Sequence record: OR498728.1
Direction: 5' to 3' (one strand)
Length of the DNA stretch: 64,000 bases
DNA from: Escherichia phage ZX4221
This document shows positions 10,307-17,332 of this stretch, one piece after another. Each line of letters begins with the position of its first letter. Positions within the stretch are counted from its first letter, which is position 1. The translations under genes and the position numbers were made by a program. Under the pieces are notes generated by a model. The model was not told the origin of the DNA and made no database searches. It worked only from the letters and a program-made list of their open reading frames with translations.

Positions 10307-11722
10307 ATGAGCGAATTATTTAAACATGCGCACCTTCATGCAGGTCGAACTGAAAATGGTGCTGTAAACCATACTTCATCAATGTCTGCTCTGGTAGACT
10401 TCTACAAAGCCGCTGGCTCAAGCCGTAGCAATGTAGAAATCTTACCAGACCTGTTCTACAAAGCTTTGCGTGAGGATGTTGATGTTGCAGTTCGTATTTT
10501 ACTGCATATGCGAGATGTACGAGAAGGTATGGGTGAGCGTAAAGCTTTCCGAACTGTTTTACTTCAAGCGATTGAAGATAAGGTTTTAGAACCTACACAG
10601 GTTCTTCGCATTATGGATAAGATTGCAGAGCTTGGTCGTTTTGATGACTTCAAAATCTTCGTAGGTACTCGTTTTGAGACAGATGCCTTCAAACATTTAG
10701 AAGCAGCATTACTAGACCCTGCAACAGCAGGTTTAGCGGCTAAGTGGTTACCACGAGTAAAACCACGCCACAAACAGTTTGTAAAACGTTTCTGTAAGTT
10801 TGCAAACTTAAGTGAGAAGGAGTATCGCACACTGTTATCTGCACTGTCCGATACGGTTGAGCAAAAAATCTCTGCTAATGAGTTTGGTAAGATTGACTAC
10901 AGCAAGATTCCTTCACTCGCTGCTGCACGTTACCAAAAGCTCTTTAACCGTAAAGATGGTGAACGTTACAAAGCTTATATCGAGTCACTCTCAAAGGGTG
11001 AGGCTAAGATTAACGCTGGTGCTGTTTACCCATACGATGTGATTAAATCTATCAAGTATGGTAATGCAGGTGTTGCTAATGAGCAGTGGAAAGCACTACC
11101 AAACTGGATGGCAGAGGGTGAAAACATCTTGTGTATGACTGATGTTTCAAGCTCAATGTCTTGGGTGAATCTTGGTTCAATCACTGCCCTTGATATTGGC
11201 GTATCACTTGCCTTGTATGTAGCAGAACGCAATACAGGTTGCTTTAAGAATGAGTTAATGGTTTATTCAACAAACCCTCACTTCATCGAACTGAGTGGTG
11301 ATTTGAGAAACCGTCACCGTCAGGTAATGCGTCATGTTGAATATGGTTCAACTAACTTACAAGCAGCTTTTGACCGCATTCTTGAAATAGGTAAGAGAAA
11401 CAACTTGACTCAGAAAGATATGCCAAGTAAGCTTATTATCTTCTCTGATATGGAGTTTAATCAGGTTGATGGTGCAAATGGTCGTACAAACTTTGAAGCA
11501 ATTCAGAGTAAGTACAAAAAAGCTGGATACGAAATGCCACAACTAGTATTCTGGTACTTAGCAAACCGTAATGGTACTTGCGAAGTATCTGTTAAAGATA
11601 ATGGTGTAGCAATGGTATCAGGGTTCTCTCCAGCCACTTTAAAAGCTCTGCTTGGTGGTGAGAAGTTTGACCCAATCAACGTAATGCTCAAAGCAGTAAT
11701 GGTTGACCGTTACATCTGGTAA
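10307..11722 (+). CDS. vWA (MIDAS) domain protein, putatively Ro60/TROVE-like RNA-binding protein
   Basis: 471 aa; C-terminal half has MIDAS-like TDVSSSM ... GSTN ... FSDME; N-terminal TENGAV...ALVDFYKAAGSSR resembles the start of TROVE domains from memory; good RBS; gene is certain, TROVE assignment is inference. Confidence 0.6.
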   Translation: MSELFKHAHLHAGRTENGAVNHTSSMSALVDFYKAAGSSRSNVEILPDLFYKALREDVDVAVRILLHMRDVREGMGERKAFRTVLLQAIEDKVLEPTQVLRIMDKIAELGRFDDFKIFVGTRFETDAFKHLEAALLDPATAGLAAKWLPRVKPRHKQFVKRFCKFANLSEKEYRTLLSALSDTVEQKISANEFGKIDYSKIPSLAAARYQKLFNRKDGERYKAYIESLSKGEAKINAGAVYPYDVIKSIKYGNAGVANEQWKALPNWMAEGENILCMTDVSSSMSWVNLGSITALDIGVSLALYVAERNTGCFKNELMVYSTNPHFIELSGDLRNRHRQVMRHVEYGSTNLQAAFDRILEIGKRNNLTQKDMPSKLIIFSDMEFNQVDGANGRTNFEAIQSKYKKAGYEMPQLVFWYLANRNGTCEVSVKDNGVAMVSGFSPATLKALLGGEKFDPINVMLKAVMVDRYIW

Positions 11723-11730
11723 AAAGTTTA

Positions 11731-11768
11731 AAAAGGGTATTGACAATGTGTTTAATACCCTTTAATAT
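11731..11768 (+). promoter_or_regulatory. Sigma70-like promoter for the tRNA array, embedded in a hairpin
   Basis: TTGACA 11740-45, 17 nt spacer, TAATAT 11763-68; flanked by 9 bp inverted repeat AAAGGGTAT/ATACCCTTT. Confidence 0.55.
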
Positions 11769-11830
11769 GTTCTACATAGAAACGAAATGAGAGCTTTTCT
11801 AAGATACTGAAAAATATTTTAAAAAAGTTC

Positions 11831-11860
11831 TTGACAACCACTAAAAAATAATGTTAAAGT
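11831..11860 (+). promoter_or_regulatory. Possible second promoter upstream of first tRNA
   Basis: TTGACA at 11831-36 with weak -10 about 17-18 nt downstream. Confidence 0.3.
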
Positions 11861-11886: not shown

Positions 11887-11963
11887 CTCTGTTTAGCTCA
11901 GCTTGGTAGAGCGTTCCGTTTGGGGCGGTAAGGCCGGAGGTTCAAGTCCTCCAACAGAGACCA
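11887..11963 (+). tRNA. tRNA-Pro (anticodon TGG)
   Basis: Hand-folded: acceptor CTCTGTT/AACAGAG, D-stem GCTC/GAGC, anticodon loop TTTGGGG, T-arm GGAGG-TTCAAGT-CCTCC, CCA encoded. Confidence 0.75.
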
Positions 11964-11970
11964 AATTAAT

Positions 11971-12048
11971 GTTCCAGTAGACAAAACGGTAAAGTCACCA
12001 CTCTTTCAAAGTGGATATTTGAGGGTTCAAATCCCTTCTGGAACGCCA
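11971..12048 (+). tRNA. tRNA-Glu (anticodon TTC)
   Basis: Acceptor GTTCCAG/CTGGAAC, anticodon stem CCACT/AGTGG with loop CTTTCAA, T-loop TTCAAAT, CCA encoded. Confidence 0.7.
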
Positions 12049-12055
12049 GTCTTGA

Positions 12056-12128
12056 CAGAAGACCAATTGCAGCAAACTTAATCTTATTCATCTGACACGA
12101 AATCGGACAAAGAAGAGATTTGGTCTGG
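12056..12128 (+). ncRNA. Stem-closed structured element A (CAGAAGACC ... GGTCTGG family), Y-RNA-like candidate
   Basis: 5' CAGAAGACCAA pairs with 3' TTGGTCTGG (7 bp); conserved 5' box CAGAAGACCnnnTnCAGCAA; inner hairpin AATCT/AGATT; directly follows tRNA-Glu. Confidence 0.4.
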
Positions 12129-12139
12129 TCATTAAGAAT

Positions 12140-12216
12140 TGCGGGTATAGAGAAAGGGCGTCTCACATGTCTCATTAGCATGGTATCGGCAGGTTCGACT
12201 CCTGCACCCGCCTCCA
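12140..12216 (+). tRNA. tRNA-Met (anticodon CAT), copy 1
   Basis: T-arm GCAGG-TTCGACT-CCTGC, acceptor TGCGGGT/ACCCGCC with mismatch at pair 1-72, anticodon loop CTCATTA; CCA encoded. Confidence 0.6.
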
Positions 12217-12222
12217 ATTTTG

Positions 12223-12283
12223 CAGAAGACCGTATTCAGCAACAAACTACTTTTTGCGGATAAAAGAAAAAAACACGGTCTGG
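12223..12283 (+). ncRNA. Stem-closed structured element B (same family)
   Basis: 5' CAGAAGACCGT pairs with 3' ACGGTCTGG (7 bp); same 5' box as element A. Confidence 0.4.
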
Positions 12284-12294
12284 CAATGTATTAA

Positions 12295-12371
12295 GGTTAG
12301 GAAGCACATAAGGTATGTGCGGTCGCCTGTTAAGCGAATGGCACAGGGTTCGAATCCCTGACTAACCGCCA
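12295..12371 (+). tRNA. tRNA-Asn (anticodon GTT)
   Basis: D-stem GCAC/GTGC, anticodon loop CTGTTAA, T-arm CAGGG-TTCGAAT-CCCTG, acceptor GGTTAGG/ACTAACC, CCA encoded. Confidence 0.7.
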
Positions 12372-12380
12372 AATTTAAAT

Positions 12381-12468
12381 GTGTCGTTATCCCGTAGATG
12401 GTAGCGGTGGGGACTGTAAATCCCTTGTCATTGAGACTCGGTAGGTTCGACTCCTACACGGCACACCA
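12381..12468 (+). tRNA. tRNA-Tyr (anticodon GTA), long variable arm
   Basis: 88 nt; acceptor GTGTCGT/ACGGCAC, anticodon stem GGGGA/TCCCT loop CTGTAAA, T-arm GTAGG-TTCGACT-CCTAC, CCA encoded. Confidence 0.7.
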
Positions 12469-12474
12469 AATAAA

Positions 12475-12552
12475 GGTTATGTAGTTTAATCTGGTTAAAA
12501 TACTCCCCTGTCACGGGAGATGATGAGGGTTCAAATCCCTTCGTAACCGCCA
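12475..12552 (+). tRNA. tRNA-Asp (anticodon GTC)
   Basis: Anticodon stem CTCCC/GGGAG perfect, loop CTGTCAC, T-loop TTCAAAT, acceptor GGTTATG/CGTAACC, CCA encoded. Confidence 0.75.
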
Positions 12553-12639
12553 AATTATAATAAGTATTTCAAGATGATGTTTTGAGAGGGCTATTTAGCC
12601 CCTCCCTTAAAGAGTTCTTACGAGTATTCTTTAAAGGAG

Positions 12640-12713
12640 CAGAAGACCAAATGCAGCAAGAATGTATGAAATTTCAAGCCAATTTAATTTTGAAAATTTA
12701 AACTTGGTCTGGC
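12640..12713 (+). ncRNA. Stem-closed structured element C (same family)
   Basis: 5' CAGAAGACCAA ... 3' TTGGTCTGG; inner hairpin AAATTTCAA/TTGAAATTT. Confidence 0.4.
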
Positions 12714-12725
12714 TCAACAAATTTA

Positions 12726-12857
12726 CAGAAGACCGTTTACAGCAAAACTTAAACAATCTATTTCTCCGGTAAAGAAAAGGCGAAGGTTCGATTCCTTCAC
12801 TCGGCAGATGTCGAGTTGGTGTAATGGTAGCACTTAAGATGATAAACAACGGTCTGG
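12726..12857 (+). ncRNA. Stem-closed structured element D enclosing a circularly permuted tRNA-like module; Y-RNA (YrlA-type) candidate
   Basis: Outer 8 bp stem AGACCGTT/AACGGTCT; inside, in order: anticodon-like arm TTTCT-CCGGTAA-AGAAA, T-arm GAAGG-TTCGATT-CCTTC, ACTCGGC-A-GAT-GTCGAGT acceptor hairpin, D-arm GTGT-AATGGTA-GCAC. Confidence 0.5.
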
Positions 12858-12860
12858 TAA

Positions 12861-12999
12861 TTATCTTTGTAGATAAGTTATTAAGCTTCCCTGTGAGTAT
12901 GCGACCACAAAGGTGAAAGGGTAGATTCTAGATTTAACCCGAAAAGACACATCGCTACAGACCTTAAGCAAGTCTGGGTAGCTTATCTACAAAGATAAT
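12861..12999 (+). ncRNA. Structured element bounded by a perfect 17 bp inverted repeat
   Basis: TTATCTTTGTAGATAAG (12861-77) and its exact reverse complement (12983-99) enclose ~105 nt with internal hairpins. Confidence 0.4.
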
Positions 13000-13004
13000 T
13001 TAAT

Positions 13005-13080
13005 GGAAGTGTAGCAGAATGGTGATGCGGCAGACTTTTAATCTGACAGGCGATGGGTTCGAATCCCTCCACTTCTACCA
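13005..13080 (+). tRNA. tRNA-Lys (anticodon TTT)
   Basis: Acceptor GGAAGTG/CACTTCT, anticodon loop CTTTTAA, T-loop TTCGAAT with imperfect T-stem ATGGG/CCCTC, CCA encoded. Confidence 0.6.
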
Positions 13081-13084
13081 ATAT

Positions 13085-13161
13085 GGTTCAGTCGCAGATA
13101 AGGTAATGCAGGGGTTTCATAAGCCCTATGAATGTGGGTTCGATTCCCATCTGAACCTCCA
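13085..13161 (+). tRNA. tRNA-Met (anticodon CAT), copy 2 (initiator, elongator or Ile-lysidine not resolved)
   Basis: Acceptor GGTTCAG/CTGAACC perfect, anticodon stem GGGGT/GCCCT loop TTCATAA, T-arm GTGGG-TTCGATT-CCCAT, CCA encoded. Confidence 0.7.
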
Positions 13162-13162
13162 A

Positions 13163-13238
13163 GCTGGTATAGTTAAGAAGGTTATAACACTCCCCTGATA
13201 AGGGAACATCGGTGGTTCGATTCCACCTACCAGTACCA
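13163..13238 (+). tRNA. tRNA-Ile (anticodon GAT)
   Basis: D-stem GTTA/TAAC, anticodon loop CTGATAA, T-arm GGTGG-TTCGATT-CCACC, acceptor GCTGGTA/TACCAGT, CCA encoded. Confidence 0.7.
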
Positions 13239-13253
13239 ATTCCAATAAAGTTG

Positions 13254-13282
13254 TTGACATTGAGATGTGACCACTTTATAGT
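13254..13282 (+). promoter_or_regulatory. Internal sigma70-like promoter within tRNA array
   Basis: TTGACA 13254-59, 17 nt spacer, TATAGT 13277-82. Confidence 0.55.
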
Positions 13283-13574
13283 AACTAAAATACTTCATAA
13301 TATGTATAATTCAAACACCAATACATGAGTGTTAGACGTAACACAATGTGGGGAAATTTGTTGTACATATTCTGAATAGTTTTCGTTGCGTAGCGTCTAT
13401 TTTGCAAACTTAAAATAAATGCAAACGACAATGTTTTTCTGGCAGTAGCTTGATAGGCTAAACACCAGTGAGGTCTTCCAACCCCTCATCAAAGAATTTG
13501 GCGTACTCGCCCACGGTATGATTAATAAGGTGGGCATCTTTAAGGGCTTTTTAAGAGAGTCTTTAAAGATTAAT

Positions 13575-13651
13575 GCACCCTTAGTTCAACTGGACAGAGC
13601 AAATGACTTCTAATCATTGAGTTACAGGTTCGAATCCTGTAGGGTGTGCCA
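13575..13651 (+). tRNA. tRNA-Arg (anticodon TCT)
   Basis: Anticodon stem AATGA/TCATT perfect, loop CTTCTAA, T-arm ACAGG-TTCGAAT-CCTGT, acceptor GCACCCT/AGGGTGT, CCA encoded. Confidence 0.75.
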
Positions 13652-13793
13652 AATAGTTAGCAGATTGCTTAGACGACCTTATCGGGTCTCCGTGTAAGGA
13701 GGTGGTCTGTATCTCATGTTTTCCAGAACATGTAAATAATCTGAGAAGGGGCTTTACAGTGTTGCGAAAATACGGTAAGCTTCGAATTATAGT

Positions 13794-13876
13794 GTGGGAC
13801 GATGTTAAGACTCTAAGGCATGAGCAACGGCCTCCAAAACCGTTTCAAAGGGGTTCAACTCCTCCGTCCCATGCCA
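13794..13876 (+). tRNA. tRNA-Trp-like (anticodon CCA) with atypical extended D-region
   Basis: Acceptor GTGGGAC/GTCCCAT, anticodon arm ACGGC-CTCCAAA-ACCGT, T-loop TTCAACT, CCA encoded; about 8 extra nt between acceptor and D-stem, so canonical fold not achieved by hand. Confidence 0.4.
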
Positions 13877-13889
13877 AAGTCTTATTAGG

Positions 13890-13977
13890 GGTAGGTAGCG
13901 GCTAATGGTAGCCAAACTGTCTTGAAAACAGTTGCCACTGTAGAGATACGGTGAGGGTTCGACTCCTTTACTTACCG
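13890..13977 (+). tRNA. tRNA-Ser (anticodon TGA), long variable arm, CCA not encoded
   Basis: Acceptor GGTAGGT/ACTTACC, 3 bp D-stem, anticodon stem ACTGT/ACAGT perfect with loop CTTGAAA, ~20 nt variable arm, T-loop TTCGACT. Confidence 0.6.
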
Positions 13978-14235
13978 CCTAATAAGATTTTACACCGTCC
14001 ATGCTTGCTCGCATTTTCGGTTTATCCCTCGTGTATTGTCGTACACACTGATAAAGCACCTAGTAGGTGTCACGGAGAAGAGATAATATCAAGCTCTCCA
14101 AAGGTTCTAGTCACCGGATTGAACAAGACTATGCAAAGACCTAAATAGGTCTTTTTAGAGGGCTTCTAAGGTTATTACAGCTTGTTGTGGAACCTTGTTG
14201 CTTAGGTTCTTAGAAGTTCTCTAAAAAGATTTAAT

Positions 14236-14312
14236 GCACCTATAGCCCAACTGGTAGAGGCAGCAGACTTAGAATCTGCTCAGTGTGAGTTCGAATCTCT
14301 CTAGGTGTACCA
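14236..14312 (+). tRNA. tRNA-Leu-type anticodon TAG, class I (short variable arm) architecture
   Basis: 77 nt; acceptor GCACCTA/TAGGTGT, anticodon stem GCAGA/TCTGC perfect, loop CTTAGAA, 5 nt variable loop, discriminator A, CCA encoded. Confidence 0.6.
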
Positions 14313-14319
14313 AATTAAT

Positions 14320-14395
14320 GCAGGTGTAGCAAAATGGTTATGCGGCTGACTCTTAATCAGTAAGACGATGGGTTCAATTCCCTCCACCTGTACCA
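14320..14395 (+). tRNA. tRNA-Lys (anticodon CTT)
   Basis: Paralog of tRNA-Lys(TTT): acceptor GCAGGTG/CACCTGT, anticodon loop CTCTTAA, T-loop TTCAATT with same imperfect T-stem, CCA encoded. Confidence 0.6.
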
Positions 14396-14401
14396 AACAT
14401 T

Positions 14402-14477
14402 GGGGATGTAGTTTACATGGTTAAAACATAAGTTTTGCAAACTTAAGTACAGGGTTCAATTCCCTGCTTCTCCACCA
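14402..14477 (+). tRNA. tRNA-Ala (anticodon TGC)
   Basis: G3:U70 wobble pair present in acceptor stem; anticodon stem TAAGT/ACTTA perfect, loop TTTGCAA; T-arm CAGGG-TTCAATT-CCCTG; CCA encoded. Confidence 0.75.
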
Positions 14478-14483
14478 ATTAGT

Positions 14484-14558
14484 GCATCCATAGTTTAAAC
14501 GGGAAAATTACAGTCTTCCAAACTGAGGTTGAGGGTTCGATTCCCTCTGGATGCTCCA
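14484..14558 (+). tRNA. tRNA-Gly (anticodon TCC)
   Basis: Acceptor GCATCCA/TGGATGC perfect, anticodon loop CTTCCAA, T-arm GAGGG-TTCGATT-CCCTC, CCA encoded. Confidence 0.75.
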
Positions 14559-14565
14559 AATTAAT

Positions 14566-14641
14566 GCTCCTATCGTATAATTGGCTATTACGGTTGCCTT
14601 GTAAGCAACTTATCAGGGTTCGAATCCTTGTGGGAGCACCA
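14566..14641 (+). tRNA. tRNA-Thr (anticodon TGT)
   Basis: Anticodon stem GTTGC/GCAAC perfect, loop CTTGTAA, T-arm CAGGG-TTCGAAT-CCTTG, acceptor GCTCCTA/TGGGAGC, CCA encoded. Confidence 0.75.
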
Positions 14642-14645
14642 ATTC

Positions 14646-14731
14646 AGAGGTCAAGTGAAAGACCGCTGGTGTCAACTGAAGACCGTAACAAATTCCACGG
14701 AGTTGAGTTAGCGGCACAACTTCAGACCTCT
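14646..14731 (+). ncRNA. Structured element E, divergent relative of the CAGAAGACC family
   Basis: Outer stem AGAGGTC/GACCTCT; contains CTGAAGACCGTAACAAATT resembling the family 5' box; nested stems CCGCT/AGCGG and CTGAAG/CTTCAG. Confidence 0.3.
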
Positions 14732-14736
14732 TTCAT

Positions 14737-14811
14737 ACTCGCTTAGTTTATATGGTAAAACATCACCCTTACAAGATGGAGAAAAAGGTTCAAGTCCTTT
14801 AGTGAGTACCA
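14737..14811 (+). tRNA. tRNA-Val (anticodon TAC)
   Basis: D-stem GTTT/AAAC, anticodon loop CTTACAA, T-arm AAAGG-TTCAAGT-CCTTT, acceptor ACTCGCT/AGTGAGT, CCA encoded. Confidence 0.7.
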
Positions 14812-14812
14812 T

Positions 14813-14890
14813 GTTCCAGTATCCCAATTGGCAGAGGATGCAAGCTCAAACCTTGTACTAGTGACGGTTCGAATCCGTCTTGGAACACCA
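14813..14890 (+). tRNA. tRNA-Leu-type anticodon CAA, class I (short variable arm) architecture
   Basis: 78 nt; acceptor GTTCCAG/TTGGAAC, anticodon stem GCAAG/CTTGT, loop CTCAAAC, ~6 nt variable loop, T-arm GACGG-TTCGAAT-CCGTC, discriminator A, CCA encoded. Confidence 0.55.
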
Positions 14891-14895
14891 ATTTT

Positions 14896-14971
14896 GCAGG
14901 ATTAGTTCAAATGGATAGAGCAACAGTCTACGAAGCTGTTAATAGGGGTTCGAATCCCTTATCCTGCGCCA
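14896..14971 (+). tRNA. tRNA-Arg (anticodon ACG)
   Basis: Acceptor GCAGGAT/ATCCTGC perfect, D-stem GTTC/GAGC, anticodon loop CTACGAA, T-loop TTCGAAT, CCA encoded. Confidence 0.75.
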
Positions 14972-14989
14972 GATAAGTAAGAGGAATTT

Positions 14990-15232
14990 ATGCAAACATT
15001 AATCGTCGTTGAACATGAAAATTCCAATAGTATTGAGTTTGTAAGGGTTCCCACTATAGATACCCACATTTTCTTGAAAGTCGGATGGGGATGTGACCCA
15101 ATAAAAGTAGAAAATTTTATTGGTCATTACTTTGGTGGAAGACAACTTAAAAGCGTCAATTTTGAGACAATGTTACCAGAAAACTCAGAAACAAATAATA
15201 ATGTTTATCTCCTTACGAGGATTAGACAATGA
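14990..15232 (+). CDS. hypothetical protein inside tRNA array (80 aa)
   Basis: AAGAGGA Shine-Dalgarno 6 nt before ATG; stop overlaps next start (ATGA). Confidence 0.45.
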   Translation: MQTLIVVEHENSNSIEFVRVPTIDTHIFLKVGWGCDPIKVENFIGHYFGGRQLKSVNFETMLPENSETNNNVYLLTRIRQ

Positions 15233-15786
15233 GATATCTGAAGTATGCTTCATGGATTTTCCTAGCTTTGTTAGACCCATTGGCAGCAACCTTAGCAGTT
15301 ATCTTAGCACCCTTTGTAGTCCCATTCTACAGTGAGAAGAAAGGCCATCTACCTTTTGGATTCAGATGGATGGAGACATATGACAACCCGATTGATGGCG
15401 ATGAAGGTCATATGAAACGATGGGCTAAGATTAGAAAGATTGGTAAGCTCGGTGTCTATATGCAGAGAGTTGGCTGGCTCTGGAGAAACAAAGCTTATAA
15501 CTTCTCTTACCATGTGTTAGGAAGAGATGTAAAAGATGTTACTAAGTGGAAAGGTAATATCAACGTGAGTTCTGACCCTGAAGATAATCAGACAGGTTAT
15601 CTCCTAATGTGGAACAGTAATGCTTGGGGATTATTTGCTTTTATCCCATCAATTAAAATCTTTGGTAAACAATTCTACTGGAGAATTTATGTTGGATGGA
15701 AACTTAAAAGTGTTGTCCCAGAAGAAAGAGCATTCTCAAGGGAAAGAGTTATGTTGGCATTCTTTATTCATCCACTGAGAAAGTAA
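15229..15786 (+). CDS. hypothetical protein with hydrophobic N-terminus inside tRNA array (185 aa)
   Basis: ORF-track ORF; translationally coupled to 14990..15232; N-terminal WIFLALLDPLAATLAVILAPFVVPF looks membrane-associated. Confidence 0.5.
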   Translation: MRYLKYASWIFLALLDPLAATLAVILAPFVVPFYSEKKGHLPFGFRWMETYDNPIDGDEGHMKRWAKIRKIGKLGVYMQRVGWLWRNKAYNFSYHVLGRDVKDVTKWKGNINVSSDPEDNQTGYLLMWNSNAWGLFAFIPSIKIFGKQFYWRIYVGWKLKSVVPEERAFSRERVMLAFFIHPLRK

Positions 15787-15794
15787 AGATTTAA

Positions 15795-15870
15795 AGGGGA
15801 TTAGTTTACAAGGTTAAAACCTCGGTCTTTGAAATCGAAGAAGTTGGTTCAATTCCAACATCCCCCGCCA
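15795..15870 (+). tRNA. tRNA-Gln (anticodon TTG)
   Basis: Anticodon stem TCGGT/ATCGA, loop CTTTGAA, T-arm GTTGG-TTCAATT-CCAAC, A1-C72 mismatch at top of acceptor, discriminator G, CCA encoded. Confidence 0.65.
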
Positions 15871-15872
15871 AT

Positions 15873-15951
15873 GCTCCATTACTCCAATTGGCAGAGAGGC
15901 CAGACTTAAAATCTGTGTTATGTATCGGTTCGAATCCGATATGGAGTACCA
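15873..15951 (+). tRNA. tRNA-Leu-type anticodon TAA, class I (short variable arm) architecture
   Basis: 79 nt; acceptor GCTCCAT/ATGGAGT, anticodon stem CAGA/TCTG, loop CTTAAAA, ~7 nt variable loop, T-arm ATCGG-TTCGAAT-CCGAT perfect, discriminator A, CCA encoded. Confidence 0.55.
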
Positions 15952-15956
15952 AATTT

Positions 15957-16032
15957 AGCGGTATAGCATAACTGGCAATGCAGCAGTCTCTGAAGCTGTC
16001 TTATTAAGGTTCAAATCCTTATGCCGCTGCCA
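15957..16032 (+). tRNA. tRNA-Gln (anticodon CTG)
   Basis: Acceptor AGCGGTA/TGCCGCT, D-stem GCAT/ATGC, anticodon loop CTCTGAA, T-arm TAAGG-TTCAAAT-CCTTA, discriminator G, CCA encoded. Confidence 0.65.
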
Positions 16033-16063
16033 CTTCTAAGGGTTCTTACGAGAGTCCTTAAAT

Positions 16064-16139
16064 GTGGCCTTATCATAAATGGTAATGACCCATGCTGTGA
16101 ACATGGTCTATACGGGTTCAAATCCCGTAGGTCACCCCA
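16064..16139 (+). tRNA. tRNA-His (anticodon GTG)
   Basis: Anticodon stem CCATG/CATGG perfect, loop CTGTGAA, D-stem TCAT/ATGA, T-arm ACGGG-TTCAAAT-CCCGT, discriminator C; no encoded G-1 (preceding base is T). Confidence 0.7.
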
Positions 16140-16145
16140 ATTTAT

Positions 16146-16221
16146 AGTCCAAGTAGCTTATATGGTTAAAGCGCGTGTCTGAAAAACATGAGAAGAGGGT
16201 TCAAATCCCACTGGACTACCA
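16146..16221 (+). tRNA. tRNA-Phe (anticodon GAA), irregular acceptor/linker geometry
   Basis: Anticodon stem CGTGT/ACATG, loop CTGAAAA, D-stem GCTT/AAGC, T-loop TTCAAAT; acceptor pairs only as 6 bp or with a 4 nt linker to the D-stem; boundaries uncertain. Confidence 0.55.
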
Positions 16222-16237
16222 ATTTCAAAGGTGCTTA

Positions 16238-16972
16238 ATGAAAGAGATGACAGAACAAGGTAAGGAGATTTTTAATCTCTTAAAAACCGGTAGAGGGTTT
16301 TCTAATCCCCTTATTACTGGTGCAGCAGTTCTCGGTGGAACCGTAGCTGCCTCTACATCACTTGTAAGCTCTATTAGCTCTGTAACAGACCCTACAATAA
16401 AGGATAAGCTTATTGCTGCTGGACTTACAACAGTTCTGCTTAACAGCTTTACAACGAGTCTGACAAGCACTACATCAACCACTAAGACACTGACAGATTA
16501 TGGTCAAAAGTCCATTGATGAGTTTTCATCACGTATGCAGGTAGCAAAAGGATATTCCAATGTTATGGGTGCAGCAGGAGAACAAGTCGGTTGTACACCA
16601 TTTAGTGGTATTATGGGTGTTGCTACAGAATATGGTCAAAAAGCTATTGACACAATTAACAGTGCACTAGATGGTGTTAATGATGTGTTAAGTGACTTAC
16701 AAGATGCTATTGATGAAGGTCTTGATACTATTTCTGATTTAGCTAACCAAGCTGTTAGCAAGATTAATGAAGGTATCTCGAAGATTACAGCTTATGCAGA
16801 TGAAGTTGTGCAGATGATTGAAGAAGAAGCTGCCCTTATTGCAGAGTACCTTAAAACGAATATCAATGGGTTCTTAGCAGGTATCTTACCAGACTGGTTT
16901 GATGATGCTTGTAAAACTGGTGTAATTGATACTATTGCAACACCAGAAATGAAGAACGCATTACAGAAATAA
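16238..16972 (+). CDS. hypothetical Ser/Thr-rich protein (244 aa)
   Basis: ORF-track ORF trimmed to first ATG with RBS (AAAGG) that does not overlap tRNA-Phe. Confidence 0.5.
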   Translation: MKEMTEQGKEIFNLLKTGRGFSNPLITGAAVLGGTVAASTSLVSSISSVTDPTIKDKLIAAGLTTVLLNSFTTSLTSTTSTTKTLTDYGQKSIDEFSSRMQVAKGYSNVMGAAGEQVGCTPFSGIMGVATEYGQKAIDTINSALDGVNDVLSDLQDAIDEGLDTISDLANQAVSKINEGISKITAYADEVVQMIEEEAALIAEYLKTNINGFLAGILPDWFDDACKTGVIDTIATPEMKNALQK

Positions 16973-16973
16973 T

Positions 16974-17066
16974 GGAAGATTAACCCTAAAAGGTAAGGGA
17001 GCAGTTTGCTAAACTGCCAGTAGCTGAGAAATCGGTGTACCAGTTCAAGTCTGGTATCTTCCTCCA
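16974..17066 (+). tRNA. tRNA-Ser (anticodon GCT), long variable arm
   Basis: 93 nt; acceptor GGAAGAT/ATCTTCC perfect, anticodon stem GCAGT/ACTGC perfect, loop TTGCTAA, T-arm ACCAG-TTCAAGT-CTGGT, CCA encoded. Confidence 0.75.
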
Positions 17067-17070
17067 ATTT

Positions 17071-17146
17071 GAATCCGTGACAGAAATGGCTATGTGCCTG
17101 TCTGCAAAACAGGTTTATAAGGGTTCGAGTCCCTTCGGATTCTCCA
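17071..17146 (+). tRNA. tRNA-Cys (anticodon GCA)
   Basis: Acceptor GAATCCG/CGGATTC perfect, anticodon stem CCTGT/ACAGG perfect, loop CTGCAAA, T-arm AAGGG-TTCGAGT-CCCTT, CCA encoded. Confidence 0.75.
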
Positions 17147-17308: not shown

Positions 17309-17332
17309 GACGGTCTCTGTACCGTCTTTTTT
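17309..17332 (+). terminator. Rho-independent terminator
   Basis: GACGGT-CTCTGT-ACCGTC hairpin followed by TTTTTT. Confidence 0.7.

Follow-up and report, generated by a model that had tools for sequence, protein, structure and literature searches.

Can a tRNA without a long variable arm serve as a leucine tRNA in an enterobacterial cell? The question is raised by three genes of Escherichia phage ZX4221 (record OR498728.1), which lie in a tRNA array within the 64,000-nt stretch of DNA analysed here (the window). They bear the leucine anticodons UAG, CAA and UAA, and all three have the short variable region of class I tRNAs. The original prediction had left two possibilities, charging with leucine in spite of the missing arm or an identity other than the one the anticodon suggests. 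We consider it probable, from comparison of sequences, that the three genes encode functional leucine isoacceptors of a distinct class I lineage, widespread in phages and Actinomycetota, that are charged by the leucyl-tRNA synthetase (LeuRS) of the host. The window belongs to the genus Felixounavirus (Felix O1-like myoviruses, Ounavirinae), and its tRNA-bearing stretch of 5.4 kb, with the array, is also present in Escherichia and Salmonella members of the genus at 94–97% identity. The genes are long known and are annotated as tRNA-Leu (they are entered as Leu in Table 1 of the Felix O1 paper); class I tRNA-Leu is known from animal mitochondria and from Streptomyces coelicolor.

Structure and leucine identity of the three genes

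ARAGORN and the Rfam covariance model RF00005 (gathering score 29 bits) both recover the three genes as cloverleaves, aligned over positions 1–71 of the 71 in the model (Table 1). The lengths of 77, 78 and 79 nt that had been proposed from hand folding are correct and count the encoded CCA; the tRNA bodies are 74, 75 and 76 nt. Both programs agree on the position of the anticodon in all three genes, in a loop of 7 nt, and RF00005 returns the proposed triplets TAG, CAA and TAA, with none placed elsewhere. The variable loops, parsed from the ARAGORN structures, are UCAGU in Leu(UAG) (5 nt, 14280–14284), ACUAGU in Leu(CAA) (6 nt, 14857–14862) and GUUAUGU in Leu(UAA) (7 nt, 15917–15923), and the discriminator is A73 in all three; the original prediction was right on both points. 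A class II arm is longer than 10 nt and forms a stem-loop, whereas these 5–7 nt are unpaired. The Ser and Tyr genes of the array are class II, as had been claimed.

Leu(UAG), with its anticodon at 14270–14272, has U8, A9, A37 and a G1·U72 pair. Its D arm consists of a 3-bp stem (GCC/GGC), C13·A22 and the D loop CAACUGGUAGA, and there is one mismatch in the T stem. The D arms of Leu(CAA) and Leu(UAA) are UCC-CAAUUGGCAGA-GGA and CUC-CAAUUGGCAGA-GAG, respectively, both with C13·A22. The anticodon loop of Leu(CAA) is CUCAAAC. Leu(UAA) also has G1·U72, together with a C27·U43 mismatch at the top of the anticodon stem. All three genes encode CCA, and with G18G19 and the T loop UUCGAAU their D and T loops are canonical and their stems ordinary. 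The class II core, G9 with R13·A22, is absent; the window genes have A9 with C13·A22.

Minimum-energy folding of the single sequences gives z-scores of −0.16 to −1.6, and the minimum-energy fold of Leu(UAA) is not a cloverleaf. Such folding is usually uninformative for tRNAs, and the fold therefore rests on the covariance model and on covariation. When 100 distinct class I Leu genes are aligned with MAFFT, pairing holds in 97.1% of cells, as compared with 59.3% in shuffles (0 of 500 reach the observed value) and 38–47% with slid partners. Compensatory double changes are found in 19 of the 20 cloverleaf pairs. In the three class I Leu genes of Erwinia phage Hena2 (Kolesnikvirus), the acceptor and anticodon stems differ from those of the window genes at most positions yet stay paired. 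Leu(CAA) and Leu(UAA) of the window are 99% identical to their counterparts in Mooglevirus KPS64, where the non-tRNA DNA of the region is 62% identical; for phage pEC-M719 the values are 99–100% (99% for Leu(CAA)) and 75%. For Leu(UAA), identity is 99% or more in 215 phage records and 100% among the matches listed, which include Felix O1 (annotated tRNA-Leu). Leu(UAG) is 100% identical in phage wV8 and in many Felixounavirus records, where it is annotated tRNA-Leu. Conservation and covariation alike indicate that the three genes are under purifying selection as tRNAs.

The Leu(UAG) slot has a different occupant in KPS64 and pEC-M719 (loci L369, 3058–3135, and L370, 2951–3028). These genes are 56–57% identical to the window gene, have the G9 core and the D loop GUAAUUGGUAAA, and are again class I. 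The slot has thus undergone a non-orthologous replacement in which the short arm was kept.

The determinants recognised by E. coli LeuRS are A73, A14, the A15–U48 Levitt pair, G18G19, A20a and tertiary pairs that join the D loop to the T loop, and the enzyme ignores the anticodon (PMC9976931, PMC6614811). All three window genes have U8, A14, A15 and a variable loop that ends in U, which provides for the U8–A14 and A15–U48 pairs. G18G19 and A20a are positioned as in the host, and the T loop supplies U54, U55, C56 and A58. For the host, the E. coli K-12 genes leuZ, leuW, leuX and leuQPV were compared with the window genes. The K-12 tRNAs are 85–87 nt long with variable regions of 13–15 nt, and all are class II. 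The statement that bacterial tRNA-Leu is normally class II thus holds for the host; it does not hold for bacteria and phages at large, as Actinomycetota chromosomes and many phage lineages show (see below). The D arm has one geometry in both sets (a 3-bp stem, an unpaired 13·22 and an 11-nt loop), and the loop, CAAYUGGYAGA in the phage and NAAUYGGUAGA in the host, agrees in length and register. The two sets also have in common A73, A14, A15–U48 with the variable region ending in U48, G18G19 and A20a, and G1·U72 is found in leuZ as well. They differ in the 13–15-nt arm of the host tRNAs and in the core, G9 with R13 in the host and A9 with C13 in the phage.

The sequence and folding of the long arm are uncorrelated with leucylation, and E. 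coli tRNA-Leu variants without it are still active (PMC9976931). Engineered arm-less 'minimalist' E. coli tRNA-Leu shows that the arm is dispensable for the E. coli enzyme (Larkin et al. 2002; Asahara et al. 1993, 1998, summarised in PMC9976931); those variants were made in the laboratory, whereas the window genes are natural. Bacterial LeuRS has no need of the arm, which is why it can be missing. Bacterial tyrosyl-tRNA synthetase (TyrRS) contacts the long variable arm. Seryl-tRNA synthetase (SerRS) requires it (PMC9976931). These demands would explain why the Ser and Tyr genes keep their arms, and neutral arm loss wherever the synthetase permits fits the contrast between Leu and Ser/Tyr.

Isotype was also assessed with profile hidden Markov models, one per isotype, built from about 1,500 tRNAs of unrelated loci with the anticodon and the variable region removed. 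The three window genes score best against the class I Leu profiles (42–57 bits for the viral and 38–52 bits for the single-copy chromosomal profiles), and the best non-Leu profiles reach 18, 26 and 46 bits; a best score for another isotype, which had been named as an outcome that would refute the original prediction, is not seen. Charging with leucine despite the short arm thus appears the better of the two possibilities first proposed, on the strength of the identity set, the dispensable arm (PMC9976931) and the masked isotype scores.

The three anticodons match Leu codons that are frequent in the phage, which has a G+C content of 39%. In 41 long open reading frames (ORFs) of the window, the shares of Leu codons are UUA 26.8%, UUG 14.4%, CUU 27.2%, CUA 10.3% and CUG 15.9%. 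In E. coli, CUG is strongly preferred. Leu[TTA] is named in the Felix O1 genome paper as one of the codons aided by phage tRNAs. The anticodon loop of Leu(UAG) (14270–14276, CUUAGAA) has C32 and A37; that of host leuW is UUUAGGU, with G37. G37 is the site of m1G37 modification, and Leu(UAG), with A37, would not be a TrmD substrate. Leu(CAA) has C38, and neither TrmD nor MiaA is predicted to modify these two tRNAs. In a 2025 paper on the tRNAs of the related phage Sf14, three loop differences are counted for Leu(UAG).

A class I lineage in phages and Actinomycetota

Short-armed Leu genes recur in other phages. All four Ounavirinae checked have three short Leu genes and long-armed Ser, and three of these phages have long-armed Tyr as well. 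Two short Leu genes are present in Cronobacter phage CR9 (Vequintavirinae) and three in Mycobacterium phage FudgeTart (Bixzunavirus). A blastn search of GenBank phages with Leu(UAG) gives ungapped matches through the variable region, mostly annotated tRNA-Leu, with a few rows that carry no feature. By record, the hosts are Mycobacterium (83), Streptomyces (52), Pseudomonas (13), Enterococcus (13) and Lactobacillus (9); further hosts are Escherichia, Salmonella, Erwinia, Shigella, Gordonia, Klebsiella, Enterobacter and Cronobacter.

Larger collections were scanned with a class I pattern that made no use of A73, 13·22, A15 or U48. Each sample comes from at least 120 loci, and ratios are compared within samples only. 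For IMG/VR (at least 120 loci), the pattern required a short distance between the anticodon loop and the T loop; among the matches listed, these loci contain 168 short and 24 long Leu genes by ARAGORN. A less biased IMG/VR sample had as its anchor the T arm of a tRNA with G73, a discriminator that rules out Leu. Among the matches listed there, the short-to-long ratio of distinct genes is 13:17 for Leu, 3:27 for Ser and 0:10 for Tyr, and roughly 40% of the distinct phage tRNA-Leu genes are class I. Of 165 distinct viral class I Leu genes, 99% have A73 and 99% leave 13·22 unpaired; A15 is found in 96% and U48 in 97%. This combination also occurs in class II Leu and in no other isotype.

Bacterial contigs, one genome per species, likewise gave at least 120 loci with the class I pattern. 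In 88 of the 120 loci listed, the class I Leu gene is the sole tRNA within 8 kb, overwhelmingly in Actinomycetota (Nocardia, Mycobacterium, Rhodococcus, Gordonia, Arthrobacter, Corynebacterium, Bifidobacterium, Amycolatopsis, Pseudonocardia and others). About a dozen of the remaining loci are arrays of 9–30 tRNAs, as is typical when phage DNA ends up in metagenome bins, and the others have 2–5 tRNAs. The anticodons of the bacterial class I Leu genes among the matches listed are UAA (64), CAA (28), UAG (22), CAG (10) and GAG (7). Some contigs of metagenome-assembled genomes (MAGs) of Acidobacteriota, Planctomycetota and Elusimicrobia carry arrays of 9–30 tRNAs with several class I Leu genes; these are probably phage or other mobile DNA.

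The window genes are 76–84% identical to chromosomal actinobacterial class I tRNA-Leu, the highest value being that of Leu(UAG) against a chromosomal gene on an actinobacterial MAG contig (84%). Rhodococcus and Mycobacterium have chromosomal genes for class I tRNA-Leu(CAA) whose D arm is identical to that of Leu(CAA) of the window. With the arm removed, identity to host tRNA-Leu is only 51–64%. The difference between these ranges indicates a separate class I lineage rather than recent arm-deletion derivatives of host genes. The core follows the same division. A9 with C13·A22 is found in all three window genes, in 107 of the 165 viral and in 94 genomic class I Leu genes, and in zero class II Leu genes, in which the core is always G9 with R13·A22; this signature is an observation of the present analysis and not a published definition. 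The minority of class I Leu genes with the G9/R13 core look, from their sequences, like independent arm losses. A blastn search with Leu(UAG) in 5,426 complete E. coli genomes (E ≤ 10) gave no match, at a database size where weak tRNA-level similarity is undetectable, and there is therefore no close copy in E. coli chromosomes or prophages.

A tRNA-Leu with the anticodon AAG occurs in Erwinia phage Hena2 (locus L001, 4862–4939), and five such genes are among the 165 viral ones of class I. Apart from tRNA-Arg(ACG), A34 is uncommon in bacterial tRNAs, and it would have to be deaminated to inosine for CUU, CUC and CUA to be read.

The class I tRNAs of S. coelicolor and other Actinomycetota resemble those of the window in the Leu anticodon, the cloverleaf, a loop of the 5-nt class, U8–A14, G18G19, the T-psi-C loop and A73. 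In both settings class I Leu shares a cytoplasm with Ser tRNAs (and Tyr tRNAs) of class II. In S. coelicolor the type I tRNA-Leu(CAA), one type I tRNA among five tRNA-Leu, is leucylated by its own LeuRS, for which the minimal loop is 5 nt, and has been described as a rare bacterial exception (PMC6614811). In M. tuberculosis, only tRNA-Leu 2, 3 and 5 have long loops (PMC11541572). The phage differs from S. coelicolor in that all three of its isoacceptors are class I, and from Actinomycetota in that the genes are those of a virulent phage infecting Enterobacteria, and every tRNA-Leu of its host is class II. In animal mitochondria, tRNA-Leu(UUR) and tRNA-Leu(CUN) are likewise class I, with A73 and A14 as determinants and a bacterial-type LeuRS (PMC9976931). 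Their D and T loops are degenerate and their stems weak, whereas the window genes are canonical and lie on a phage replicon; the features compared give no evidence of common descent. T-even and T5-like coliphages also carry UAA and UAG leucine isoacceptors in arrays that serve A/U-rich codons. In the T5-like Salmonella phage rokbiter, however, the two tRNA-Leu (86 and 85 nt) are class II, with the G9 core and an arm of the 13-nt class. The tRNA-Leu of T4 is, we presume, also class II.

Probable charging by the host enzyme and alternative readings

In the most probable course of events, the three Leu genes would be transcribed along with the other members of the 26-gene array, and the tRNAs would mature with the CCA that the genes encode. 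LeuRS of the Salmonella or E. coli host would leucylate the products through A73 and the hinge of the D and T loops. The tRNA core has re-adapted, with A9 and C13·A22 where class II Leu has G9 and R13·A22. The UAA tRNA would decode UUA and UUG, the CAA tRNA UUG, and the UAG tRNA CUA and other CUN codons. The benefit would lie in serving codons that are common in the phage and rare in the host.

Several points weigh against this course. E. coli LeuRS is reported to have failed to leucylate the S. coelicolor type I tRNA and has been called type II-only (PMC6614811); earlier work cited in the same paper indicates that the leucine-specific domain of the E. coli enzyme favours a large variable loop. 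The window genes lack the unpaired 47n from which the long arm springs, and they lack the large variable loop. Published accounts disagree on the weight of this, the arm being dispensable according to PMC9976931, whereas the E. coli enzyme failed on one type I tRNA in PMC6614811. With identity to host tRNA-Leu as low as given above, the genes are not host derivatives tuned to the host enzyme. Decoding and modification may differ from those of the host because of A37 in Leu(UAG), where the host readers of CUN have G37, and of C38 and C27·U43. The isotype classifier is crude, with three isotypes lacking a model, and we regard it as support only; it ranks the true isotype best in about 14 of the 23 other window tRNAs, and in 8 of the 14 non-Leu window tRNAs checked individually.

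The failure of E. coli LeuRS on the S. coelicolor tRNA may not transfer to the phage. The variable loop of that tRNA is ACAGC, with C48 (PMC6614811), and because of C48 it lacks the A15–U48 pair, which E. coli LeuRS needs; the phage genes have U48. S. coelicolor LeuRS uses C74 in place of A73 and has a leucine-specific domain adapted to type I tRNAs. We know of no such adaptation in LeuRS of the phage host. We hold charging by the host enzyme to be probable and no more than that because E. coli LeuRS failed on the S. coelicolor tRNA and because the argument from U48 is one that we infer.

An adaptive role for the short arm would refine charging by the host enzyme rather than replace it. The tRNAs would be charged normally and would escape factors that read the long arm, such as AbiEii and MenT-type toxins. 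MenT3, which is a nucleotidyltransferase toxin of the DUF1814 type and a relative of the abortive-infection toxin AbiEii, needs the long loop: tRNA-Ser with the loop deleted is left unmodified, and tRNA-Met with the loop grafted on becomes a target (PMC11541572). AbiEii appears to prefer class II tRNAs (bioRxiv 10.64898/2026.01.19.700257), and phage tRNAs have been proposed to evade anticodon nucleases through changes in the anticodon loop (PMC10264068). Class I Leu is also strongly over-represented in phages as compared with non-actinobacterial hosts. However, no toxin is known that inactivates tRNA-Leu through the arm in enterobacteria, MenT3 prefers Ser over Leu (PMC11541572), and the Ser and Tyr tRNAs of the same arrays retain their arms. 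In Actinomycetota class I Leu is an ordinary single-copy chromosomal gene for which no defence story is needed, and neutral arm loss fits equally well. We consider the adaptive role unlikely. A bolder form, to which we likewise give little credence, holds that class I Leu is spread by phages and, against the published view of a type II-only enzyme, charged efficiently by enterobacterial LeuRS, and that the loss of the arm is functional, making the tRNA invisible to AbiEii or MenT-type toxins or to cross-recognition by SerRS. If the loss is functional, the phage would keep leucine decoding alive while class II tRNAs of the host are attacked; if the lineage is phage-spread, actinobacterial chromosomes might have obtained their class I Leu genes from phages.

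It is also rather unlikely that the genes yield stable tRNA-shaped RNAs which the class II-preferring LeuRS of enterobacteria charges poorly or not at all, and which act as a decoy or sponge or as a regulator, or are carried over from hosts that accept class I. Such a role would agree with the failure of E. coli LeuRS on the only natural bacterial type I tRNA-Leu tested (PMC6614811) and with a lineage whose nearest relatives are actinobacterial and not those of the host. Yet the genes retain all E. coli leucine determinants, among them A73 and U48, for which a decoy would have no use, and the refractory Streptomyces tRNA has C48. The three anticodons fit the frequent Leu codons of the phage, and arm-less E. 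coli tRNA-Leu variants are still substrates (PMC9976931). Class I has moreover been kept in at least three unrelated groups of enterobacterial phages (Ounavirinae, Vequintavirinae CR9 and Klebsiella FBKp34) and in phages of Pseudomonas, Enterococcus and Lactobacillus.

An identity other than leucine, the second possibility of the original prediction, is very improbable. In its favour one could cite that class I architecture is in general atypical for Leu and that the Lys profile gives Leu(UAG) 46 bits, against 52–57 for the Leu profiles. The identity rules of the other synthetases are established, and the Val, Ile, Met, Phe, Lys, Tyr and Pro enzymes accept A73. The anticodon bases that ValRS, IleRS, MetRS, PheRS, LysRS, TyrRS and ProRS need are nevertheless absent from the window genes, as are G3–U70 (Ala), G-1 (His) and the long arm (Ser). 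The Leu-specific D arm and A15–U48 are present, the RF00005 placement of the anticodon is unambiguous, and no isotype scores better. Decay into pseudogenes, for which one could cite the anticodon-stem mismatch of Leu(UAA), the T-stem mismatch of Leu(UAG) and the two other array tRNAs marked pseudo in the Felix O1 paper, is effectively refuted by the conservation pattern (99–100% against 62–75% for non-tRNA DNA), with compensatory changes across the family, encoded CCA and Rfam scores well above threshold in addition.

The tRNA array and the place of class I tRNA-Leu in phages

The array is organised in several blocks split by small ORFs (Table 1). In records of related phages, some of its members are labelled tRNA-OTHER or lack annotation. 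The promoter-like matches upstream show no enrichment over shuffles.

Table 1. Leucine genes, comparators and flanking signals of the tRNA array in the window
Feature	Position	Strand	Evidence and remarks
tRNA-Leu(UAG), class I	14236–14312	+	ARAGORN, 77 nt; RF00005 57.3 bits
tRNA-Leu(CAA), class I	14813–14890	+	ARAGORN, 78 nt; RF00005 43.6 bits
tRNA-Leu(UAA), class I	15873–15951	+	ARAGORN, 79 nt; RF00005 47.5 bits
tRNA array	11887–17146	+	ARAGORN, 26 tRNA genes, several blocks split by small ORFs
tRNA-Tyr(GUA), class II comparator	12381–12468	+	88 nt, 15-nt variable region (ARAGORN and parse)
tRNA-Ser(UGA), class II comparator	13890–13979	+	90 nt, 20-nt variable region (ARAGORN and parse)
tRNA-Ser(GCU), class II comparator	16974–17066	+	93 nt, 21-nt variable region (ARAGORN and parse)
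Two sigma-70-like promoter matches	11740–11860	+	just 5' of the first tRNA; consensus match only
Terminator-like hairpin with T run	17309–17326	+	3' of the last tRNA; consensus match only

Directly 5' of the array lies an ORF of 471 amino acids (10307–11722, + strand) that matches DUF2828, DUF7788 and the von Willebrand A domain. A DUF2828 gene likewise precedes the tRNA array of Mooglevirus KPS64. DUF2828 proteins, as we take it, resemble RNA-binding proteins of the TROVE/Ro60 type, and the fixed place of this ORF beside tRNA genes may not be accidental. Two ORFs between the tRNA blocks (15229–15786 and 16175–16972, + strand) match DUF7338 and DUF7217, families of unknown function; the DUF7338 ORF is absent from the corresponding position in KPS64. 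A phage-encoded synthetase or helper protein was sought next to the Leu genes, and only domains of unknown function were found there.

Two gaps of the array (12749–12799 and 13796–13870, + strand) contain tRNA-like matches of 22 and 23 bits, below threshold, and a T-arm-like sequence, GCGAAGGTTCGATTCCTTCAC, is located at 12780–12800. The matches may be tRNA genes that have decayed. Between tRNA-Ile and tRNA-Arg, a gap of 336 nt holds weak matches to transfer-messenger RNA (tmRNA) models (13327–13574, + strand; RF00023 16.9 bits, E 8e-4; permuted tmRNA 20 bits), and also the best promoter-like match of the region (13254–13282, 11 of 12 positions). The discriminator of tRNA-Ser(GCU) is U, and its 3' end, AUCUUCC-U-CCA, recurs in Erwinia phage Hena2 as well as a T5-like Salmonella phage. 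E. coli tRNA-Ser presumably has G73. In tRNA-Ser(UGA), only CC is encoded after G73. The Felix O1 genome paper flags two other tRNAs of the array as pseudo.

In the published view, tRNA-Leu is long-armed everywhere but in animal mitochondria, according to the 2023 identity review (PMC9976931). The Felix O1 genome paper and the 2025 Sf14 tRNA paper give the genes as Leu and leave the variable arm unmentioned; the word 'variable' does not occur in the Sf14 paper. Searches of the accessible literature turned up no statement that phage tRNA-Leu is commonly class I or that enterobacterial phages carry class I Leu. Our data point away from the view of a rare exception because class I Leu is common in phages and in Actinomycetota. 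Short-armed genes are a large share of phage tRNA-Leu genes, occur in phages of Proteobacteria, Firmicutes and Actinobacteria, and are routine in Actinomycetota chromosomes. The short-armed Leu genes of the window are real but far less singular than the original prediction implied, and the annotation of phage tRNA arrays should take note of them. The phage also poses a clean question, whether a class I tRNA-Leu found in nature is charged by LeuRS of E. coli or Salmonella. An answer would inform views of recognition by LeuRS, of the design of orthogonal or minimal Leu tRNAs and of whether tRNA-directed defences of the host shape phage tRNAs. The genes are ordinary, yet they open a way into a phenomenon that is easy to test and has been little described.

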